Below the pieces are notes generated by a model that saw only the letters and a list, made by a program, of their open reading frames with translations, searched no databases and had not been told where the DNA came from. A stretch of 64,000 nt of DNA. It comes from an archaeon (GTDB lineage Archaea > Iainarchaeota > Iainarchaeia > Iainarchaeales > JAAZKV01). The stretch's first letter is position 1; each line of letters opens with the position of its first letter. Below, piece by piece: positions 32,790-62,377 of the stretch. The stretch is taken from positions 70,545 through 134,544 of the forward strand of contig JBAZFU010000001.1 of assembly GCA_041653195.1 (NCBI GenBank), read 5' to 3'. A program made the position numbers and the translations under genes.

Positions 32790-33059
32790 ATGGAATTACT
32801 AAAAATTAGTTTTATTGTTTTACTGATTTTTGTGCTTTTTTCTCTTTTTGGTTGCACAGCATTAAATCAATTAAACCCAAACCTTGAGAAAAAAGAAACT
32901 GATATTCCTACAACAAGCATTAAAAACATAGGAAAGACGTTGGGTTCAGATATTTCTGACGCTGAAGCGGTTATGAGTTGCATTGATATTTGCAAACCTA
33001 ACGCAGTAGACAGCGCCGACTATTCGGGTAAAACAATTGCCTGTTGGTGCGAGAAATAG
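32790..33059 (+). CDS. small secreted Cys-containing lipoprotein-like protein
   Basis: 89 aa; signal peptide ending in lipobox-like LFGC followed by TALNQLNPN; paralogous leader to gene 35489. Confidence 0.5.
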   Translation: MELLKISFIVLLIFVLFSLFGCTALNQLNPNLEKKETDIPTTSIKNIGKTLGSDISDAEAVMSCIDICKPNAVDSADYSGKTIACWCEK

Positions 33060-33209: not shown

Positions 33210-33282
33210 TGGACCGTGGGGGATTCGCACCCCCGACCACGCCGTTGCGAACGGCGGATCATAACTGCTAGACCAACGGCCC
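33210..33282 (-). tRNA. tRNA-Ala (anticodon CGC)
   Basis: Manual fold: acceptor GGGCCGT/ACGGTCC with G3:U70; anticodon stem CGCCG/CGGCG, loop TTCGCAA; T-arm GGGGG-TGCGAAT-CCCCC; 73 nt. Confidence 0.8.
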
Positions 33283-34410
33283 TGGCAATATCTTACCTGT
33301 TTCGCAGAACTCTTTATATTTGTTTAGAATTCTTGGGTTGCTACTGCCAATTAGTTCAAACCACTTGTGTGTGTTTTCTATGCCTCTAACACTTACACTT
33401 TCCGCATGAACAAATGCCTTAATTCCCTGTTTCAAAAGTATTTCTTTTATTTGATTTCGCAAAACTGGGCTGTAAGAACAAATTGTCACATAAGGATACC
33501 TGAATCGCTCATCCTTTCTTGCATTCATGTGACCATCTGTATCAAGCAAACCTCTAATCACAAAATTCAAGTTCTCAGTTTTAAGGCTTAAAAAATTATT
33601 CGAGATTCCGAAATCTTTTGGCTTTCCATTTGTATGATAACCATTGCTTAAAAGCCATTCATAAAATAGCCTACTGCTGAATTGAAGACGCACTGAATTA
33701 TCTTTACGAAAAAATATTGCCGGCTTAATTGGGAAATACTTTCTAATTATCGCATCAAGATACTTAACGTATTCTACGTCTTTTTTTGCGTTCCCAACAA
33801 TTGCCCCGTGATAAACATATTGCCCAGAGCTTTTTGAAAAATATTTCCCACAATGGCCATCGCCCAGCATTGCCCCAAATAATTCACACAATTCTGGATT
33901 TGCAATATCGGGAAAACCGTCATAAGTTTCCCAAGTTATTTTCTTCTTACAAGACCTAACTTTTTTTAGGTGCTTTCTAAACCCGCTTTCCCCCAAACAC
34001 TTTTTCATAGTTCTTATTGAATTTGTTCCGCCTTTTTTGGCGCCCCAATTATTTGGCAAAAAATTTATCTGTTTTAAAAATTCAAATTTTTGTTCAGTAG
34101 GCAAATAATTCAATAACCCGAAGAAAACTCTCGAAGGAAAAGTTATTTCGCCTCGCCTTATTCTCTTGAGACCTGTATTTCCAATGTTGAATTCTTTAAG
34201 CCATTCATTCCAAGAAACATACTTCTGAGAAGCTTTCGCAAGAGCAAATAACTTTCTCGGATTTGGAATTCGGACTCTCCGGTCGCTTTTATCCTCTTCC
34301 ATTTCAGATTTTTGTTTTTCTTCGTTTTTAACCGCATCGGAGCTTTCATGCCAGTCATTCATCAAAATCACCCTCCGAAAAGTTTTCCAAAATCCAGAGT
34401 TCCCTTCCAT
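33268..34410 (-). CDS. HTH + double-motif LAGLIDADG homing-endonuclease-like protein (paralog 1)
   Basis: 380 aa; LAGLIDADG motifs FGAMLGDGH and GLLDTDGHM; N-terminal HTH-like region; stop codon lies 15 nt inside tRNA-Ala 5' end. Confidence 0.65.
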   Translation of the reverse strand: MEGNSGFWKTFRRVILMNDWHESSDAVKNEEKQKSEMEEDKSDRRVRIPNPRKLFALAKASQKYVSWNEWLKEFNIGNTGLKRIRRGEITFPSRVFFGLLNYLPTEQKFEFLKQINFLPNNWGAKKGGTNSIRTMKKCLGESGFRKHLKKVRSCKKKITWETYDGFPDIANPELCELFGAMLGDGHCGKYFSKSSGQYVYHGAIVGNAKKDVEYVKYLDAIIRKYFPIKPAIFFRKDNSVRLQFSSRLFYEWLLSNGYHTNGKPKDFGISNNFLSLKTENLNFVIRGLLDTDGHMNARKDERFRYPYVTICSYSPVLRNQIKEILLKQGIKAFVHAESVSVRGIENTHKWFELIGSSNPRILNKYKEFCETGKILPGPLV

Positions 34411-35190: not shown

Positions 35191-35236
35191 ACTAATTTCA
35201 CAAGAAATACTGAAAACAAGCCTTTTTTAGATTTTG

Positions 35237-35267
35237 GTTTTCGCCGGCCTTTTGGAAAAAGGCCGAA
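35237..35267 (-). repeat. hairpin + GGCGAAAAC repeat unit (tRNA-trailer/intron module family)
   Basis: Minus strand: TTCGGCCTTTTTCCAAAAGGCCGGCGAAAAC directly after the tRNA 3'-exon fragment. Confidence 0.6.
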
Positions 35268-35301
35268 TGCAGCCGCCGGGATTTGAACCCGGGTCATAGC
35301 C
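35268..35301 (-). pseudogene. tRNA 3' exon remnant (positions 39-73; acceptor strand CGGCTGC) preceded by intron-like sequence ending AATTAG
   Basis: Minus: GGCTA-TGAC-CCGGG-TTCAAAT-CCCGG-CGGCTGC-A; upstream is an intron-like module as in the tRNA-Gly introns; no 5' exon within about 200 nt. Confidence 0.4.
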
Positions 35302-35310
35302 TAATTCCAT

Positions 35311-35389
35311 TTTTCGCTAATTTTCGCCAACCTTTTCGAAAAAGGTTGTTCGCCGGCCTTTTTTTTAAAAAGGCCGAATGCGACCGCTG
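35311..35389 (-). repeat. two tandem hairpin-repeat units plus tRNA-Gly(GCC) 3'-end-like 13-mer
   Basis: Minus: CAGCGGTCGCATTCGGCCTTTTTAAAAAAAAGGCCGGCGAAC + AACCTTTTTCGAAAAGGTTGGCGAAAAT; mirrors tRNA-Gly(GCC) 3' end + trailer at 58856-58897. Confidence 0.55.
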
Positions 35390-35488
35390 TACAGCTACCA
35401 AAAAAGTTGTATCGCCCTCCACCTTTGTTAGACTTTTAACCTAACTTAAATGCTACAAAAGTAGCATGTAAAGAGATATAAAAATATA

Positions 35489-36091
35489 ATGCGCCATCAG
35501 AATCGTATGAAAAACAAAGTATTGCTAACAACCTTATTTTTGCTAGTGATTACTCTTTTAGGTTGCACAGAATTAAATCAACTTAACCAAAACACAGAAA
35601 GTGACAATAATAATACTGTTGAAATAAATTTGTTCGAAAAATATGAATCCAACAACCCATTCAAAGTGGATCAAGAATATTTATCTTATTGCGAGTCGCT
35701 TTCGACACCAGATAAACAATACGCTTGTAAAACCAATTCTGCCAAAGGCCCGCAATATTGTGAATTTACCAATGCCCAAAAAGAAAAAGAGAATTGTATT
35801 CTAAGTTCAATCAAAAATAGCAACTTTGTGCTTTTAGGAGACGAAAGATACACCAATTTTCACTATTATTGGTACTTAAAGTACCTTGAAGATGTTGAAG
35901 ATGTGCAGTCAAAACAGAAATTTTATCAAGAGTTTATGATTTGCGACTACATTGATAATAATGGCCAAAAAGACACCTGTTTAACTTGGCTTTTTAATAA
36001 AAATCAGGCTTTTGTTCCTTATGATGATGACCCAAACTTTATTGAAGCAAGACAGGTCTTTGTGGAAAATTATATAAAAAAAAATAATTGA
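35489..36091 (+). CDS. secreted Cys-containing lipoprotein-like protein
   Basis: 200 aa; signal peptide LLVITLLGCTELNQLNQN near-identical to gene 32790 leader; 8 Cys in mature part. Confidence 0.55.
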   Translation: MRHQNRMKNKVLLTTLFLLVITLLGCTELNQLNQNTESDNNNTVEINLFEKYESNNPFKVDQEYLSYCESLSTPDKQYACKTNSAKGPQYCEFTNAQKEKENCILSSIKNSNFVLLGDERYTNFHYYWYLKYLEDVEDVQSKQKFYQEFMICDYIDNNGQKDTCLTWLFNKNQAFVPYDDDPNFIEARQVFVENYIKKNN

Positions 36092-36222
36092 TAATAACTA
36101 AAAATAACACTTAACTGAAATGAACATAAAAAATTTTTAATATGAAAAGAATATGGTTTCAAGGACATTTAGAATACAAAAAACCAATGAACGGAAAAAA
36201 AAACAGTTAAAGAGGCGATTCT

Positions 36223-36384
36223 ATGTTTTCAAATAAAAATGCAGGCATAACCTATATTGTTCTAGCATTTGTCCTTTTGAGTTTGCTTTTTTTGAACATC
36301 ATAAATGTTGATAGCATGACTGTGCTTGGAACAACTATGACTATCATTGGAATTGGAATTATGTTCTTGCTGCAAAAAAAGTAG
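36223..36384 (+). CDS. small two-helix membrane protein (53 aa)
   Basis: Not in ORF track; AAAGAGGCG RBS 6 nt upstream of ATG 36223; MFSNKNAGITYIVLAFVLLSLLFLNII... Confidence 0.35.
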   Translation: MFSNKNAGITYIVLAFVLLSLLFLNIINVDSMTVLGTTMTIIGIGIMFLLQKK

Positions 36385-36405
36385 GGCAATACAACATTTT
36401 TCGTC

Positions 36406-36418
36406 AATGCGACCGCTG
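36406..36418 (+). repeat. 13-bp direct repeat AATGCGACCGCTG (second copy; first at 35377-35389)
   Basis: Exact 13/13 match to 35377-35389; reverse complement resembles tRNA-Gly(GCC) 3' end + trailer (CGGCGGTCGCATT). Confidence 0.5.
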
Positions 36419-36546
36419 GGACTCTTTTACTTTTGGTTGCTGGTTTGTGGCTGGTTGTTTTTAGTGGAATGTATTCACACAGGTTCTACTTGGCTTACCT
36501 TGCCTTTCATTCAAATCAGCCCCTGATAAAACACAATTCTTGTGTT

Positions 36547-37329
36547 CTAAAAATCACGTATTTTTAATAATTCATCAACTTTTTTGAACCATTTAATATC
36601 TTCACTACTTAGTTTCATTTTTTTTGAGTCTTTTTTTAACCTATTAAGCATTTTATGAATATCTTCCTGAAAAGCAGATCTATCTTTTTCAGGATAGAAT
36701 TTGGCATACCTTATGCGCATTTCTACAGAATAAACAAATTTAAGCACTCCTGACCAATATGTGACCAAAGGTCTATCGCCATCCATGCTAATATCCATAG
36801 AACCTTTTCGCAGAGGAAGCTTAGTTCTTTCAATAATCCATTTATTCGCTTGAGCCAAAAGAAGCAAATCATAATCTAAATCAATCAAAGAATACAAATG
36901 AAGCTCTTTATCATTTTTTAAAGGAAAAAGAAAAATTCGCCACTTATCTTCCTCCGAATCTTTAAATACTCCATAACTGAAAGAATGAGTAAGTTTTCTG
37001 ATTATTTTCTTTTCATTTTTATCATACGCAACGAATGCGTTTAATCCAAGATATGGGTTAATATATCCAAGGAACCCCGAATTTTCTCCAATAATCATTT
37101 GGGTATTAATTAATACCGATACCACATCTTCTGCTATTTTTTGAACTTGTTCTTTGGCAGACTCTTTTGAATATAACACATTTAACGAAACATTAATCCA
37201 TTCAAAATTTAGGTCCGGGGCAACAATTTTTATGGCTTCTTCATTTTTTTCTAATTTTGGGTCATCCAAATTATTTGTTTTTTTGAAAAAATCAAATGCG
37301 CCCATTAAATCAACTCCTTTTTGTGCCAT
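36547..37329 (-). CDS. hypothetical protein
   Basis: 260-aa ORF; no recognisable motif; lies between the LAGLIDADG paralog/tRNA-Gly and the repeat cassette. Confidence 0.45.
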   Translation of the reverse strand: MAQKGVDLMGAFDFFKKTNNLDDPKLEKNEEAIKIVAPDLNFEWINVSLNVLYSKESAKEQVQKIAEDVVSVLINTQMIIGENSGFLGYINPYLGLNAFVAYDKNEKKIIRKLTHSFSYGVFKDSEEDKWRIFLFPLKNDKELHLYSLIDLDYDLLLLAQANKWIIERTKLPLRKGSMDISMDGDRPLVTYWSGVLKFVYSVEMRIRYAKFYPEKDRSAFQEDIHKMLNRLKKDSKKMKLSSEDIKWFKKVDELLKIRDF

Positions 37330-38374
37330 TATGCGGCTTACGGGAATTGAACCCGTTCATCCACCTTGGGAAGGTGGAATCATACCAGTAGACCAAAGCC
37401 GCTTTGAATGGTTCTTCAACTTGCAAGCCAGTTATTTCACTCCAAATACATTCCTTTAATGGAATTTCCCCCGTTTCAATGAAATACTTGTAGCGCATAA
37501 TATTTTTAGGGTTTGCACAACCCACCAACGTTAAGAACCGATGCACTTCCTCTTGCCTTTGAATTCTCACATTAACATCACTTTTTGAAGGAGCGAATCC
37601 AATTTGCCAGAGCATTTGATAAAGATTTGACCTTATTTGAGGAGAATCAGTTTGAAATTCTATTATTAATCTTTTATACTTTTTCTGTTTTTGATAAATT
37701 CCCCCATCTGTGTCCAAAAGCCCTCTCAACGCACCATAAATATATACGTCTTTTTCAAAAATCCATCGTGGAAGAGATACCTTATTTTTTATTTTATCTC
37801 CCAAAACAAGCGAGTTTTTGAGCAAAAATTTTACTAACTCTGTTGAGTTTACTTTCAATTGCATCGCGTTTGAATTTTTTAACCGAAATATCTTAGAGCT
37901 CAAACCAAAAAGCTGCTTAATCATATTTTGCAAATATTTGTAATGTTCAATTTCATAAAAATTGCCAGTTATTGTAAGTGTTTTCGAATCAATATGCCCA
38001 TCGCCCAGAATTACTCCGAAAAGCTCCGCTAATTTTTCACTTTTCTCAGGCACTTTAATATTCTTTTTATTTTTACCGCCACCCAATTCCTGCCCCCAGT
38101 TTTTGGCAAGGGTTTTTTCCACCCACTTTTTTCTAATCACAACCCAACTTTCAAAAGGGTGTTTTGCTAAAAGCCTTTTTGCATAGCTCAGCGGAATCGT
38201 AGTGCGTTCTTTTCTCCAATCTATTCTAATAGTGTGTTCTGACAAATTCAACTCTTTTGCTAAAGCAATCCATGTCAAGCCGCTTTTTTTCTTAATCTGT
38301 TCAATAAACTTTCTTTGCAATCCTTTCTTGAACTTGACTCGTTCTTCCCTGATTAGTTCGCCAACTTTCCTCAT
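37310..38374 (-). CDS. HTH + double-motif LAGLIDADG homing-endonuclease-like protein (paralog 2)
   Basis: Start taken at Met61 (ATG 38374) of ORF 37310..38554; motifs FGVILGDGH and GLLDTDGGI; N-terminal region aligns with paralog 1; reading frame continues through the whole tRNA-Gly(CCC) before the stop. Confidence 0.6.
   Translation of the reverse strand: MRKVGELIREERVKFKKGLQRKFIEQIKKKSGLTWIALAKELNLSEHTIRIDWRKERTTIPLSYAKRLLAKHPFESWVVIRKKWVEKTLAKNWGQELGGGKNKKNIKVPEKSEKLAELFGVILGDGHIDSKTLTITGNFYEIEHYKYLQNMIKQLFGLSSKIFRLKNSNAMQLKVNSTELVKFLLKNSLVLGDKIKNKVSLPRWIFEKDVYIYGALRGLLDTDGGIYQKQKKYKRLIIEFQTDSPQIRSNLYQMLWQIGFAPSKSDVNVRIQRQEEVHRFLTLVGCANPKNIMRYKYFIETGEIPLKECIWSEITGLQVEEPFKAALVYWYDSTFPRWMNGFNSRKPHNGTKRS
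37332..37402 (-). tRNA. tRNA-Gly (anticodon CCC)
   Basis: Manual fold: acceptor GCGGCTT/AAGCCGC; anticodon stem CCACC/GGTGG, loop TTCCCAA; T-arm ACGGG-TTCAATT-CCCGT; 71 nt. Confidence 0.8.
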
Positions 38375-38470
38375 AAGAAAATATTTTTGTGCGAATTTTA
38401 TATTTGCTTCTGGACTGCCGTGCCGGTGACCGGCCAAATTTGTAAAATGATCACAAAAAGAGCAAATAAA

Positions 38471-38502
38471 GGAATTGAACCCTACCACTAGACTACGGCT
38501 GC
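38471..38502 (-). pseudogene. internally deleted tRNA-like fragment (acceptor 5' strand GCAGCCG + D-arm fused to T-arm-like GGGTTCAATTCC)
   Basis: Minus: GCAGCCGTAGTCTAGTGGTAGGGTTCAATTCC; 5' strand complementary to the acceptor 3' strand of fragment 35268-35301; T-arm identical to the tRNA-Gly(CCC) T-arm. Confidence 0.4.
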
Positions 38503-39225: not shown

Positions 39226-39238
39226 AAAACCACCAAAG

Positions 39239-39310
39239 CGGGCCCGGAGGGAATCGAACCCCCATCTCGAGATCCGAAGTCTCGCCGGTTATCCATTGCC
39301 ACACGGGCCC
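39239..39310 (-). tRNA. tRNA-Arg (anticodon UCG)
   Basis: Manual fold: acceptor GGGCCCG/CGGGCCC; anticodon stem CGAGA/TCTCG, loop CTTCGGA; T-arm GGGGG-TTCGATT-CCCTC; 72 nt; D-stem weak. Confidence 0.7.
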
Positions 39311-44055: not shown

Positions 44056-44110
44056 GAAAACTGCTGTATTTTCTTTTGTTTAAAAGCGCTTTGAGGGTTC
44101 CATGCCGGTC

Positions 44111-44176
44111 AGCCTTCGGCCTTTTAAAAAAGGCCGGCGAAAAGGCTTCGCACCCCTAAAAGACTGGCGAAAAATT
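44111..44176 (+). repeat. free-standing copy of the hairpin + GGCGAAAAGGCTTCGCA module (intron-like repeat family)
   Basis: CGGCCTTTTAAAAAAGGCCGGCGAAAAGGCTTCGCACCCCTAAAAGACTGGCGAAAAA; near-identical to the first half of the tRNA-Gly(GCC) intron. Confidence 0.6.
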
Positions 44177-47680: not shown

Positions 47681-47710
47681 TTTTCGCCAGCCTTTTAGAA
47701 AAAGGCTGAA
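47681..47710 (-). repeat. hairpin + GGCGAAAAC unit immediately 3' of tRNA-Ala(GGC)
   Basis: Minus: TTCAGCCTTTTTCTAAAAGGCTGGCGAAAAC. Confidence 0.55.
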
Positions 47711-47781
47711 TGGACCCTGCGGGAATCGAACTCGCATCAAATCCATGCCATGGATCTAGCTTAACCATTAGCAGAAGGGCC
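47711..47781 (-). tRNA. tRNA-Ala (anticodon GGC)
   Basis: Manual fold: acceptor GGGCCCT/AGGGTCC with G3:U70; anticodon stem GATCC/GGATT, loop ATGGCAT; T-arm with one mismatch; 71 nt. Confidence 0.7.
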
Positions 47782-58692: not shown

Positions 58693-58863
58693 CGCGACCG
58701 TAGTCTAACGGTTATGATTCAACCTTGCCAACAGCCTTTTAAAAAAGGCTGGCGAAAAGGCTTCGCAACGGCTTTTTGAGAAAAGACCGGCGAAAAAACG
58801 CAAACAAAAAATCAATAAAAAAGCAATTAGGTTGAGGACCGGGTCCAATTCCCGGCGGTCGCA
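58693..58863 (+). tRNA. tRNA-Gly (anticodon GCC) with 99-nt intron at 37/38
   Basis: 5' exon GCGACCG-TA-GTCT…CAACC-TTGCCA; 3' exon A-GGTTG-AGGA-CCGGG-TCCAATT-CCCGG-CGGTCGC-A; intron about 58731-58829 carries two hairpin-repeat units. Confidence 0.7.
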
Positions 58864-58897
58864 TTCGACCTTTCAGGAAAAGGCCGGCGAAAAAAGG
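58864..58897 (+). repeat. hairpin + GGCGAAAAAAGG unit in the tRNA-Gly(GCC) trailer
   Basis: TTCGACCTTTCAGGAAAAGGCCGGCGAAAAAAGG. Confidence 0.5.
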
Positions 58898-62215: not shown

Positions 62216-62377
62216 GCGTCCGTGATGTAACGGTAGCATGAAAGCCTTCCACGGCCTTTTTCAAAGGCCGGCGAAAAGCACTGTCTTCGCTTTTGGCTCG
62301 ACAGAGCGTGCTTCGCAGGTTTTGTAAAAAAAAACTGGAGTTAGCTTTCCGTCGGGGTTCAAATCCCCGCGGGCGCA
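62216..62377 (+). tRNA. tRNA-Gly (anticodon UCC) with about 91-nt intron at 37/38
   Basis: 5' exon GCGTCCG-TG-ATGT…AAAGC-CTTCCA; 3' exon A-GCTTT-CCGT-CGGGG-TTCAAAT-CCCCG-CGGGCGC-A; intron about 62252-62342 starts with the hairpin-repeat module CGGCCTTTTTCAAAGGCCGGCGAAAAGC. Confidence 0.7.

Follow-up and report, generated by a model that had tools for sequence, protein, structure and literature searches.

LAGLIDADG endonuclease gene joined to a complete tRNA-Gly(CCC) between probable relics of an older tRNA-Gly(CCC) gene in an archaeon of the Iainarchaeales

The nearest precedent for a transfer RNA (tRNA) gene disrupted by a mobile element is the tRNA-Thr(GGU) of Caldiarchaeum subterraneum, where a complete tRNA is preceded at a distance of 1.8 kb by a 5' fragment of this identity and a mobile element separates the two, an arrangement which, according to the abstract, the authors propose as a model for tRNA gene disruption (Sugahara et al., 2012, PMC3293823). 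Here, a 64,000-nt stretch from the genome of an archaeon of the Iainarchaeales (GenBank assembly GCA_041653195.1, contig JBAZFU010000001.1, positions 70,545 to 134,544; the whole stretch is referred to as the window) is analyzed, in which two orphan tRNA pieces bracket a LAGLIDADG endonuclease gene and a complete tRNA-Gly(CCC). In contrast to this module, the Caldiarchaeum element encodes a DNA recombinase, and the abstract describes a single population polymorphism and reports neither a matched 3' relic nor a reading frame fused to the tRNA (PMC3293823), whereas the family treated here is conserved over many lineages and two domains. The two pieces in the window are probably non-functional relics of an older tRNA-Gly(CCC) gene of the GCAGCCG/CGGCTGC acceptor type, left around a cassette made of the LAGLIDADG gene and the complete tRNA.

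The LAGLIDADG enzymes of rRNA introns and inteins in archaea are homing endonucleases whose targets are strongly conserved genes for RNAs or proteins. With these (I-Tsp061I, PDB 2dch; V-ATPase intein domains) the enzyme encoded in the window shares the fold family, the two motifs and the conserved acidic residues, but it bears an extra N-terminal helix-turn-helix-like region of about 100 aa, its gene lies outside the mature tRNA, and host function is kept by a replacement tRNA and not by splicing. Free-standing seg and mob genes of T4-like phages, such as SegB in the T4 tRNA cluster, reside next to and not inside their target gene and spread by double-strand-break repair with co-conversion of the flanks; they code for GIY-YIG or HNH enzymes and leave neither duplicated gene ends nor an overlap with a neighboring tRNA. 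The module in the window can be likened to these in that an endonuclease gene adjoins its presumed target, but it differs by the duplicated ends and the tRNA overlap. Split and tri-split tRNAs (Nanoarchaeum equitans; Caldivirga maquilingensis tRNA-Gly; PMC3218864, PMC10714607) have in common with the locus the separate pieces, the complementary acceptors, the tRNA-Gly identity and an archaeal host processing bulge-helix-bulge (BHB) motifs. However, real split tRNAs sum up to a complete tRNA and possess complementary GC-rich leaders, while in the window the 5' half of the anticodon arm is missing, the leaders pair at chance level only and an intact isoacceptor lies in between. Bacterial tRNA group I introns with homing endonucleases, LAGLIDADG among the types, are inserted in the anticodon loop (33-37) of tRNA-Asn, Asp, Arg and fMet in Patescibacteria and Cyanobacteria (PMC13011429). 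They likewise tie endonuclease genes to tRNA genes in the same ultra-small bacteria, whereas the tRNA-Ser-linked genes presented below, on which that work is silent, are followed by a complete tRNA without intron. In a study on rRNA of candidate phyla radiation (CPR) bacteria, LAGLIDADG_3 proteins were noted only in 16S insertions (PMC11270868). A full-text literature search, not covering all journals, retrieved no description of an endonuclease-plus-tRNA module nested in tRNA relics.

The locus in the window is composed of the following elements, given in the direction of the minus strand.

38481-38502, minus strand: 5' relic of the older tRNA-Gly(CCC) gene, with the GCAGCCG 5' strand of the acceptor, U8-A9 and a D-arm reaching to about position 23.
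38460-38482, minus strand: T-loop-like remnant (GGGTTCAATTCC TTTATTTGCTC), in direct fusion with the 5' relic and representing the decayed T-arm and acceptor of a further relic.
38396-38405, minus strand: TATA-like box AAATATAAAA, 22-31 nt upstream of the LAGLIDADG ATG.
37310-38374, minus strand: LAGLIDADG endonuclease gene (paralog 2), encoding the 328 aa typical of the family and then a 26-aa read-through across the tRNA.
37332-37402, minus strand: inner tRNA-Gly(CCC), intact and intron-less, acceptor GCGGCTT/AAGCCGC, called by ARAGORN and scored with 60 bits by Rfam.
35303-35376, minus strand: 74-nt leader of the 3' relic, consisting of a tRNA-trailer-type hairpin plus GGCGAA module (35376-35349) and a remnant of a canonical (37/38) intron with the end GGAATT (35348-35303).
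35268-35302, minus strand: 3' relic, i.e. exon 2 (positions 38-73) of the older tRNA-Gly(CCC), with CGGCTGC and discriminator A.
35236-35267, minus strand: trailer module after the 3' relic (TT-CGGCCTTTTTCCAAAAGGCCG-GCGAAAACC), a hairpin that trails tRNA genes in this genome.

Thus, all that the first-pass annotation of this DNA had placed between the two pieces is present, namely the tRNA-Gly(CCC) at 37332-37402, the LAGLIDADG open reading frame (ORF) and a 13-nt repeat, CAGCGGTCGCATT. The 5' piece reads GCAGCCG TA GTCTAGTGGTAGG on the minus strand from 38502 to 38481 and is matched by nhmmer to positions 1-22 of a tRNA-Gly(CCC) profile. Acceptor strand and D-arm had first been thought to extend down to 38471, which is correct as far as 38481 but not for the last 10 nt (38480-38471, GTTCAATTCC), as these belong to the T-loop-like remnant. 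The latter (GGGTTCAATTCCTTTATTTGCTC, 38482-38460) is a T-loop with decayed 3' end by resemblance, shows the motif GGTTCAATTCC at 38471-38481, is placed by nhmmer on profile positions 49-60 and resembles by eye the 3' relic of a related locus (GGGTTCAATTCCTATGCGTGCTGCA in L003; related loci are numbered with the prefix L).

The 3' piece (35302-35268) reads A GGCTA TGAC CCGGG TTCAAAT CCCGG CGGCTGC A on the minus strand and provides, in this order, position 38, the 3' strand of the anticodon stem, a 4-nt variable loop, the T-arm, the acceptor and the discriminator. Its initial description as a clean exon with an intron-like leader stands, while its start has to be moved by one base, from 35301 to 35302. 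The acceptor strands GCAGCCG and CGGCTGC are exact complements, as had already been pointed out. Within the window, CGGCTGCA is restricted to the two pieces, on opposite strands, a count which for an 8-mer alone is not significant (1.44 expected). The complementarity is more than chance, nevertheless, considering the tRNA features of both pieces, the reconstruction by ARAGORN and the matched pairs in relatives (see below). When supplemented with 15 nt (AT, T, TAGCC, TTCCCA), the pieces are recognized by ARAGORN as a clean tRNA-Gly(CCC), and when the 74-nt leader is included as well, as a tRNA-Gly(CCC) with the canonical intron i(38,74). The leader can be aligned with the introns of tRNA-Gly(GCC) (58694-58863) and tRNA-Gly(TCC) (62216-62377) of the window and with those of the inner tRNAs at L103 and L132, and ends like these with GGAATT^A (the caret marks the junction). 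An AATTAG junction shared with both intron-containing tRNA-Gly genes, as initially proposed, is found in tRNA-Gly(GCC) (GCAATT^AGGTTG) but not in tRNA-Gly(TCC), where the sequence is AGTTAG. The GGAA at the leader end would pair with the TTCC (positions 32-35) of a TTCCCAA anticodon loop, pointing to the anticodon CCC. As the 5' partner of this intron 3' end is missing, the canonical intron motif cannot form in the present sequence.

In covariance scoring, complete failure of which would have refuted the first-pass annotation, the pieces did not behave alike. Taken alone, the 5' piece receives no score from the Rfam tRNA model, not even at E<=10. The 3' piece, in contrast, is part of a pseudo-tRNA at 35268-35398 called by both ARAGORN (intron mode) and Rfam, in which a local, weaker 5' partner, GTAGCTG (35398-35392, two G-U pairs), is employed; the resulting 23.9 bits are below the gathering score of 29. 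Homology to intact orthologues, sub-threshold covariance scores and the absence of essential parts make the classification of both pieces as tRNA pseudogenes or relics well supported.

A functional alternative would be a split or giant-intron tRNA, the pieces of which are transcribed, paired via leader and trailer, cut at a BHB motif and ligated, as in Nanoarchaeum equitans or for the tri-split tRNA-Gly of Caldivirga. Perfectly complementary acceptor strands and the intron-type 3' junction kept on the 3' piece speak for this option, and the 40 nt following the 5' piece can form an imperfect, AT-rich duplex of -18.3 kcal/mol with the 40 nt preceding the 3' piece, including AATTCC/GGAATT. However, among random window pairs 6.6% are at least as stable, and among shuffles 5%. 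Moreover, positions 24-37 are in neither piece, and the anticodon loop being absent, there is no 5' splice site. The pattern of a middle piece (TAGCC plus YTNCCA) gave four hits in the window at 4.5 expected, none of them exact, and ARAGORN rejects the joined pieces as a tRNA. Trans-splicing had been ranked as the less likely option from the beginning, and with missing positions, no tRNA from the joined pieces and pairing near chance this ranking is reinforced. Besides, the window has an intact gene for each of the isoacceptors Gly(GCC), Gly(TCC) and Gly(CCC), making a fourth tRNA-Gly gene dispensable. Together with the results from relatives and bacteria reported below, these findings render a split tRNA extremely improbable.

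The identity of the interrupted gene is revealed by the closest relatives of the endonuclease, which are encoded at L091 (69% identity), L092 and L094 (both 66%). There, the inner tRNA is an intact tRNA-Gly(CCC) with the acceptor strands GCAGCCG or GCAGCTG and CGGCTGC and the 3' end CCGGGTTCAATTCCCGGCGGCTGCA, i.e. the window's outer pieces match the inner tRNA of L092. Both pieces can be aligned to the intact GCAGCCG-type tRNAs of L091, L092 and L094, the 5' piece also to L122, and a manual count on the alignment gives 29 of 35 identical positions between the 3' relic and the L092 tRNA. Hence, the interrupted gene was a tRNA-Gly(CCC) of the GCAGCCG type, and the inner tRNA is its functional replacement. 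At L132, L103, L003 and L011, a CGGCTGC-type or decayed 3' relic is found at no more than 30 nt from the inner tRNA, and the 3' relic of L132 still keeps the GGAATT^AGG junction while L103 has a GCAGTCG 5' relic upstream of the endonuclease gene. On this basis, the window pair is orthologous to those at these four loci.

For the wider comparison, the surroundings of endonuclease homologues were taken from three sources, namely individual assemblies, a set with one genome per species (80 loci) and metagenomes (80 loci), representing DPANN archaea (Woese-, Pace-, Nano-, Micr-, Aenigm- and Iainarchaeota), CPR bacteria and Omnitrophota. At 103 of 137 unique loci, a same-strand tRNA gene is located no further than about 200 nt from where the endonuclease match ends, and at 49 of the 137 the tRNA directly following in the same orientation is Gly(CCC). 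At identities of at least about 42%, Gly(CCC) is the adjoining tRNA in about 62 of 70 loci, with the endonuclease gene overlapping the tRNA as in the window. More distant archaeal branches adjoin Val(TAC), Gln(TTG) and others, and the bacterial branch Ser(GGA) or Ser(GCT). Cassettes restricted to tRNAs with CNN anticodons were considered as well but are ruled out, as Val(TAC), Gln(TTG) and Ser(GGA) occur too. Together, the LAGLIDADG gene and tRNA-Gly(CCC), about 1.2 kb, thus form a conserved module, whereas the genes flanking it vary from locus to locus; the methyltransferase gene flanking it in the window has no counterpart in any locus fetched, and the NUDIX gene is encountered only in a few loci with distant LAGLIDADG relatives. 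The initial interpretation as one ancestral intron-containing gene torn apart by insertion is therefore retained in part, as the pieces are remnants of one gene type with DNA inserted between them, but not as a one-off tear, since about 1.2 kb of the intervening DNA is the conserved module and only the further approx. 2 kb are lineage-specific.

In the window, paralog 2 is a two-motif protein (..LGDGH.. and ..LLDTDGG..) assigned to Pfam LAGLIDADG_3 (E=2.4e-8, 34.5 bits versus a cut-off of 22.5), with D125 and D223 invariant in 24 homologues. Most of the 72 database homologues are exactly 328 aa long and 47-73% identical, and relatives in the PDB are intein and intron LAGLIDADG homing endonucleases; with these invariant aspartates and structural relatives, the enzyme looks active. 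The putative promoter of the cassette would be the TATA-like box, and TTTATATA is located at the equivalent spot between 5' relic and ATG in relatives. The gene is not inside a spliced intron or intein, as nothing is missing from the downstream tRNA, which is called independently of the endonuclease region, while the outer pieces when joined make no tRNA. Instead, the frame normally closes within the tRNA, with U8-A9-G10 or a TAA/TAG of the D-loop as stop codon (at nt 15 of the tRNA in 20 and at nt 10 in 9 of 46 loci), so that the first 10-15 nt of the complete tRNA are also the end of the endonuclease frame. In the window, the usual D-loop stop codon reads TAC and, consequently, the frame runs through the whole tRNA. 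Because of this overlap, RNase P cutting at the 5' end of the inner tRNA would strip the stop codon from the endonuclease mRNA, and tRNA maturation and translation should compete.

Relics around the module were searched with a profile of the inner tRNAs in upstream, downstream and control windows. A 5' relic was detected in 11 of 31 upstream windows and in none of 28 controls; for the 3' relic, the figures were 13 of 37 downstream windows and 1 of 36 controls. All 5' relics begin at tRNA position 1, extend to positions 22-26 and leave 42-46 nt to the ATG, while the 3' relics start anywhere from position 31 to 53 but always reach the 3' end or discriminator, meaning that the left junction is fixed and the right one variable. 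Within the loci, the acceptor halves are matched. The 13 loci concerned represent 11 distinct pairs with pairing at 75 of 77 positions, a value not attained in any of 20,000 permutations (examples are GCAGCCA/TGGCTGC, GCGCTAG/CTGGCGC, GCACCAG/CTGGTGC, GCGCCAT/ATGGCGC, GCGGTAA/TTACCGC and GCAGTCG/CGGCTGC). The relic acceptors do not pair with the inner tRNA acceptor of the same locus. The comparison with related genomes proposed in the first-pass annotation has thus delivered matched 5' and 3' relics around an orthologous endonuclease-tRNA pair. Using the similarity to a locus' own inner tRNA as detector of 5' relics was less efficient, with only 18 of 94 values exceeding controls, since outer and inner tRNAs usually are different alleles. 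By eye, the outer type of one lineage is even the inner type elsewhere (L013 outer resembling L018 inner, L016 outer resembling L023 inner), as expected under serial replacement.

Recurrence of matched halves in relatives could again be taken as a sign of split tRNAs, but the outer pieces of relatives lack the anticodon arm, too, and their 3' piece is variably truncated or lost. The relics are eroded to varying degree and D-arms and T-stems often are broken. In the comparison of L014 with L107, for example, the 3' relic is present in one locus and eroded to ..GGCGCATTTC in the other. Additional evidence comes from bacteria. About 40 homologues from CPR and Omnitrophota (L032-L086, L150-L170; 25-32% identity) are encoded directly upstream of a complete tRNA-Ser(GGA) or tRNA-Ser(GCT), and by eye about a dozen of 24 loci show a tRNA-Ser-like 5' piece (GGAGGxxT.GCATAGTGG..) 30-50 nt upstream of the start codon, albeit the profile search detected it in only 3 of 40. 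Bacteria are not known to possess the archaeal BHB-type tRNA splicing. Finding the same layout there speaks against a split tRNA and indicates that the architecture is made at the DNA level.

Several features of the relics raise the question of whether the outer halves are kept by selection, e.g. as homology arms or recognition half-sites, as promoter or terminator context, or as a tRNA-like clamp for transcript processing or circularization. The distance between 5' relic and ATG is fixed in many loci, pairing is kept in 75 of 77 positions, and the relics are 85-100% identical between loci in which the four-fold degenerate sites of the endonuclease genes are near saturation. In addition, the homology between L096 and L100 extends from the outer tRNA promoter to the last base of the 3' relic, with 21 of 24 and 18 of 18 identical relic positions and a shared truncation point, whereas the inner tRNAs are different alleles (54 of 71). 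This pattern could result from cassette swapping between conserved arms or from selection on relics; the endonucleases of this pair and of L014/L107, where homology is confined in the same way, are 75-77% identical. On the other hand, no 5' relic was detected in about two thirds of the upstream windows and, likewise, no 3' relic in about two thirds of the downstream windows, the 3' relics are cut at many points, D-arms and T-stems often are broken, and in the window the 3' relic has been shifted by 2 kb without a sign of consequence. Maintenance of the halves by selection is therefore distinctly unlikely.

Some loci (L009, L012, L013, L015, L019, L101, L106 and L133) bear an acceptor-less D-arm-like motif, TAGTTTAnnGGTAGnAT, between TATA box and ATG, 5-25 nt before the latter, which is absent from the window's own clade and could represent a nested older 5' relic or a putative enzyme binding site for autoregulation. 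Another variant of a 3' relic is found at L039 (Pacearchaeota, JAUYJY010000005.1), where an exact 17-nt copy of the tRNA 3' end (AATCCGGGCAGGGCTAT), preceded by an apparent T-loop intron remnant, is located about 70 nt after a complete tRNA-Gln(TTG).

Between inner tRNA and 3' relic, the window contains additional cargo and further tRNA debris.

36547-37329, minus strand: ORF260, part of the lineage-specific approx. 2 kb between the inner tRNA and the 3' relic.
36395-36421, minus strand: relic A (TCCCAGCGGTCGCA TT GACGAAAAATG), the 3' end of a GCGAC-type tRNA-Gly.
35489-36384, plus strand (opposite to the cassette): cargo between the CAGCGGTCGCATT repeats, comprising ORF200 (35489-36091) with a signal-peptide/lipoprotein-like N-terminus and a 53-aa membrane ORF (36223-36384).
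35377-35398, minus strand: composite scar (GTAGCTGTA plus CAGCGGTCGCATT), in which a tRNA 5' end of the GCAGCYG type, with two C>T changes, is joined to relic B, a 3' end of GCGAC-type tRNA-Gly.

Neither ORF260 nor ORF200 was assigned to Pfam or PHROG, and for these two and the 53-aa ORF no counterpart was found in any related locus, hence the insertion of this extra DNA is lineage-specific. Relic A differs by one mismatch from the 3' end of tRNA-Gly(GCC) at 58853-58865, and the 13-nt direct repeat CAGCGGTCGCATT (36406-36418 and 35377-35389) bounds about 1 kb. At L003, L103 and L132, the place of the composite scar is occupied by the 3' end of the inner tRNA (..GGTCGCA). Further tRNA-Gly debris in the region consists of GTAGCTGTA and, twice, of CAGCGGTCGCA. 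The CAGCGGTCGCA preceding the 3' relic leader appears to be a stub left by an earlier GCGAC-type inner tRNA, duplicated around the ORF200 segment and fused to the stub GTAGCTGTA. These stubs and their fusion imply that the locus records several rounds of replacement, and with this extra debris the two outer pieces can be traced to the same gene lineage rather than provably to the same physical gene copy.

On this ground, the pieces might be considered two unrelated relics, with the 3' exon forming, together with the local stub GTAGCTGTA (35398-35390), an intron-containing tRNA-Gly pseudogene that has decayed and suffered an internal deletion, the distal 5' piece belonging to the T-loop-like remnant fused to it (38482-38460), and complementarity simply reflecting a shared family. 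This would be in agreement with the sub-threshold tRNA at 35268-35398 which ARAGORN and Rfam call via GTAGCTG, with GYAGCYGTA occurring exactly twice in the window and with the T-arm-like sequence (profile positions 49-60) directly after the 5' piece. However, the order at L103 is identical, with a GCAG-type 5' relic upstream of the endonuclease gene and a CGGCTGC 3' relic downstream of the inner tRNA, and the stub continues directly into a 3' end of another tRNA type (CAGCGGTCGCA), looking like the scar of a deleted earlier cassette. Two unrelated relics are unlikely, and assuming them would alter only the bookkeeping of copies, as the pieces would still be relics around LAGLIDADG-tRNA cassettes.

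The direct repeats also call to mind integrase-type integration of a plasmid or virus into a tRNA gene (SSV- or pNOB8-type) leaving att duplications, as two copies of a tRNA 3' end (CAGCGGTCGCATT) enclose a 1-kb segment with cargo on the opposite strand, and the recombinase-encoding element lying between tRNA-Thr 5' fragment and full tRNA-Thr in Caldiarchaeum, as outlined in the abstract (PMC3293823), is a precedent. Yet, no integrase or recombinase gene is present in the 35.2-38.5 kb region, the conserved partner across about 100 loci is the LAGLIDADG gene, and att sites duplicate one and the same part of a tRNA whereas the outer pieces here are opposite ends and not repeats. For the locus as a whole, integrase-type integration is very improbable, but the small ORF200 segment may nonetheless have arisen in this way.

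If a 63-nt deletion is allowed, the repeats around the ORF200 segment (35377-36421) extend past the 13-mer (CAGCGGTCGCATT..G[A/C]CGAAAAATG). The first 44 nt of the signal-peptide region of ORF200 are duplicated at 32839-32882 (86%), the start of an ORF at 32790-33059. These repeats and the duplication suggest a family of genes for secreted proteins that may have been duplicated and moved by recombination at tRNA stubs. A further repeated element, a hairpin (CGGCC/CAGCC TTTT..AAAA GGCCG/GGCTG) followed by GCGAAAA, has nine matches in the window at 0.9 expected (sites are 35236-35267, 35349-35376, 44110-44170, 47683-47712, 58731-58800, 58864-58895 and 62252-62280). It adjoins tRNA 3' ends with a TT spacer, starts the canonical introns of tRNA-Gly(GCC) and tRNA-Gly(TCC), is intergenic once and also resides within the inner-tRNA introns of L103 and L132; as hairpin-plus-GGCGAAAA module it closes the region beyond the 3' exon. 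It may act as terminator or processing signal or be a small mobile repeat.

Returning to the probable origin of the two pieces as relics of one older tRNA-Gly(CCC) gene around a cassette, the following sequence of events can be envisaged. A cassette of promoter, LAGLIDADG gene and complete tRNA-Gly(CCC) would have broken the older gene just after the D-arm. With the incoming tRNA taking over decoding, the interrupted gene could decay and would have lost the 5' half of its anticodon arm. The locus in the window seems to have been hit repeatedly, an earlier GCGAC-type inner tRNA being left as the CAGCGGTCGCA stubs and about 2 kb of unrelated cargo now separating inner tRNA and 3' relic. As the mechanism of insertion we infer homing by the LAGLIDADG enzyme, for which cleavage of the tRNA gene is predicted. 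In detail, the enzyme would cleave a resident tRNA-Gly(CCC) gene in the region of positions 25-31, the left end of the break would invade the donor at the conserved D-arm region of its 5' relic, repair synthesis would copy the cassette including the tRNA, and the right end would be joined illegitimately and at variable positions. Such a course would account for the fixed left and the variable right junction as well as for the lost half of the anticodon arm, and the tRNA within the cassette would keep the host viable without splicing.

Several observations weigh against this view. A cassette-free ("empty") allele was not found, and the two other assemblies with the flanking methyltransferase are 100% identical to the window; identity was found with a JGI (Joint Genome Institute) contig and a Logan contig. 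Endonuclease similarity roughly tracks taxonomy, which fits long vertical residence as well as frequent transfer; the data agree equally well with frequent transfer and with long residence interrupted by occasional replacement. Furthermore, the above-mentioned identity of relics despite near-saturated four-fold sites exceeds simple neutral decay and could be due to selection on relics or to repeated refreshment. Classical homing is not known to yield a duplication or a deletion as observed here, and the repair pathway proposed is a construction. Finally, due to the local GTAGCTG stub, the 3' relic may derive from a different copy than the distal 5' relic.

Outside the cassette, the window encodes a second LAGLIDADG gene (33268-34410, minus strand), whose product is 28% identical to paralog 2 over the core when comparing the copy at 34410-33268. 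It reads into a tRNA-Ala(CGC) (33210-33282) with the stop codon TAG in the D-loop, so the logic of the cassette is repeated with another tRNA. An orphan T-arm plus acceptor after this tRNA (33196-33169, GGGGG TTCGATT CCCCC AGAGCCC G) is closer to the 3' end of tRNA-Arg(TCG) (39238-39310) than to the Ala tRNA, and a 5' partner (GGGCTCT) for it was not found above chance. Also tRNA-Val(TAC) genes beside distant LAGLIDADG homologues (L027, L029, L030, L031, L036 and L043) share a peculiarity, as all contain an intron of about 30 nt in D-loop or D-stem ending with ..AAAT^GAC; the tRNA-Val of L031 has two additional introns, and ARAGORN mislabels several of this set as Ala, Ile, Glu or Cys. An interpretation of L031 as a 1.1-kb endonuclease-bearing tRNA-Val intron is ruled out by a second copy of the 5' exon after the endonuclease gene. 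Viral carriers in IMG/VR encode only distant LAGLIDADG relatives of at most 33% identity. One of these distant relatives is located on a 675-kb contig from the window's metagenome in the viral collection (L196, IMGVR_UViG_3300035208_009193), which may be a mis-binned cellular genome or a very large phage.

Going further, the module might be an active, self-complementing selfish element, in which the endonuclease would destroy the resident tRNA gene and at the same time install the replacement tRNA, with lineages specialized on Gly(CCC), Ala(CGC), Val and Gln in DPANN and on Ser(GGA/GCT) in CPR and Omnitrophota, and with serial invasions driving the turnover of tRNA alleles and the nesting of halves. 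This extension is possible but tentative, somewhat more doubtful than not.

With about 100 DPANN and CPR loci, the module apparently is a widespread and so far undescribed variant of homing-endonuclease biology, characterized by the succession of a tRNA 5' piece, a promoter, a LAGLIDADG gene fused in frame to a complete tRNA and a tRNA 3' piece. For the window, the apparent split tRNA becomes gene debris, which averts annotation of a fourth tRNA-Gly or of a suppressor "tRNA-Stop". The family supplies natural enzymes that probably recognize tRNA-gene sequences. If the endonuclease drives insertion, a mobile element would survive in an essential single-copy RNA gene without splicing, by means of a spare copy, and this would offer a mechanism for the debated origin of fragmented and split tRNA genes in archaea and explain the divergent acceptor stems of tRNA-Gly(CCC) among close relatives.

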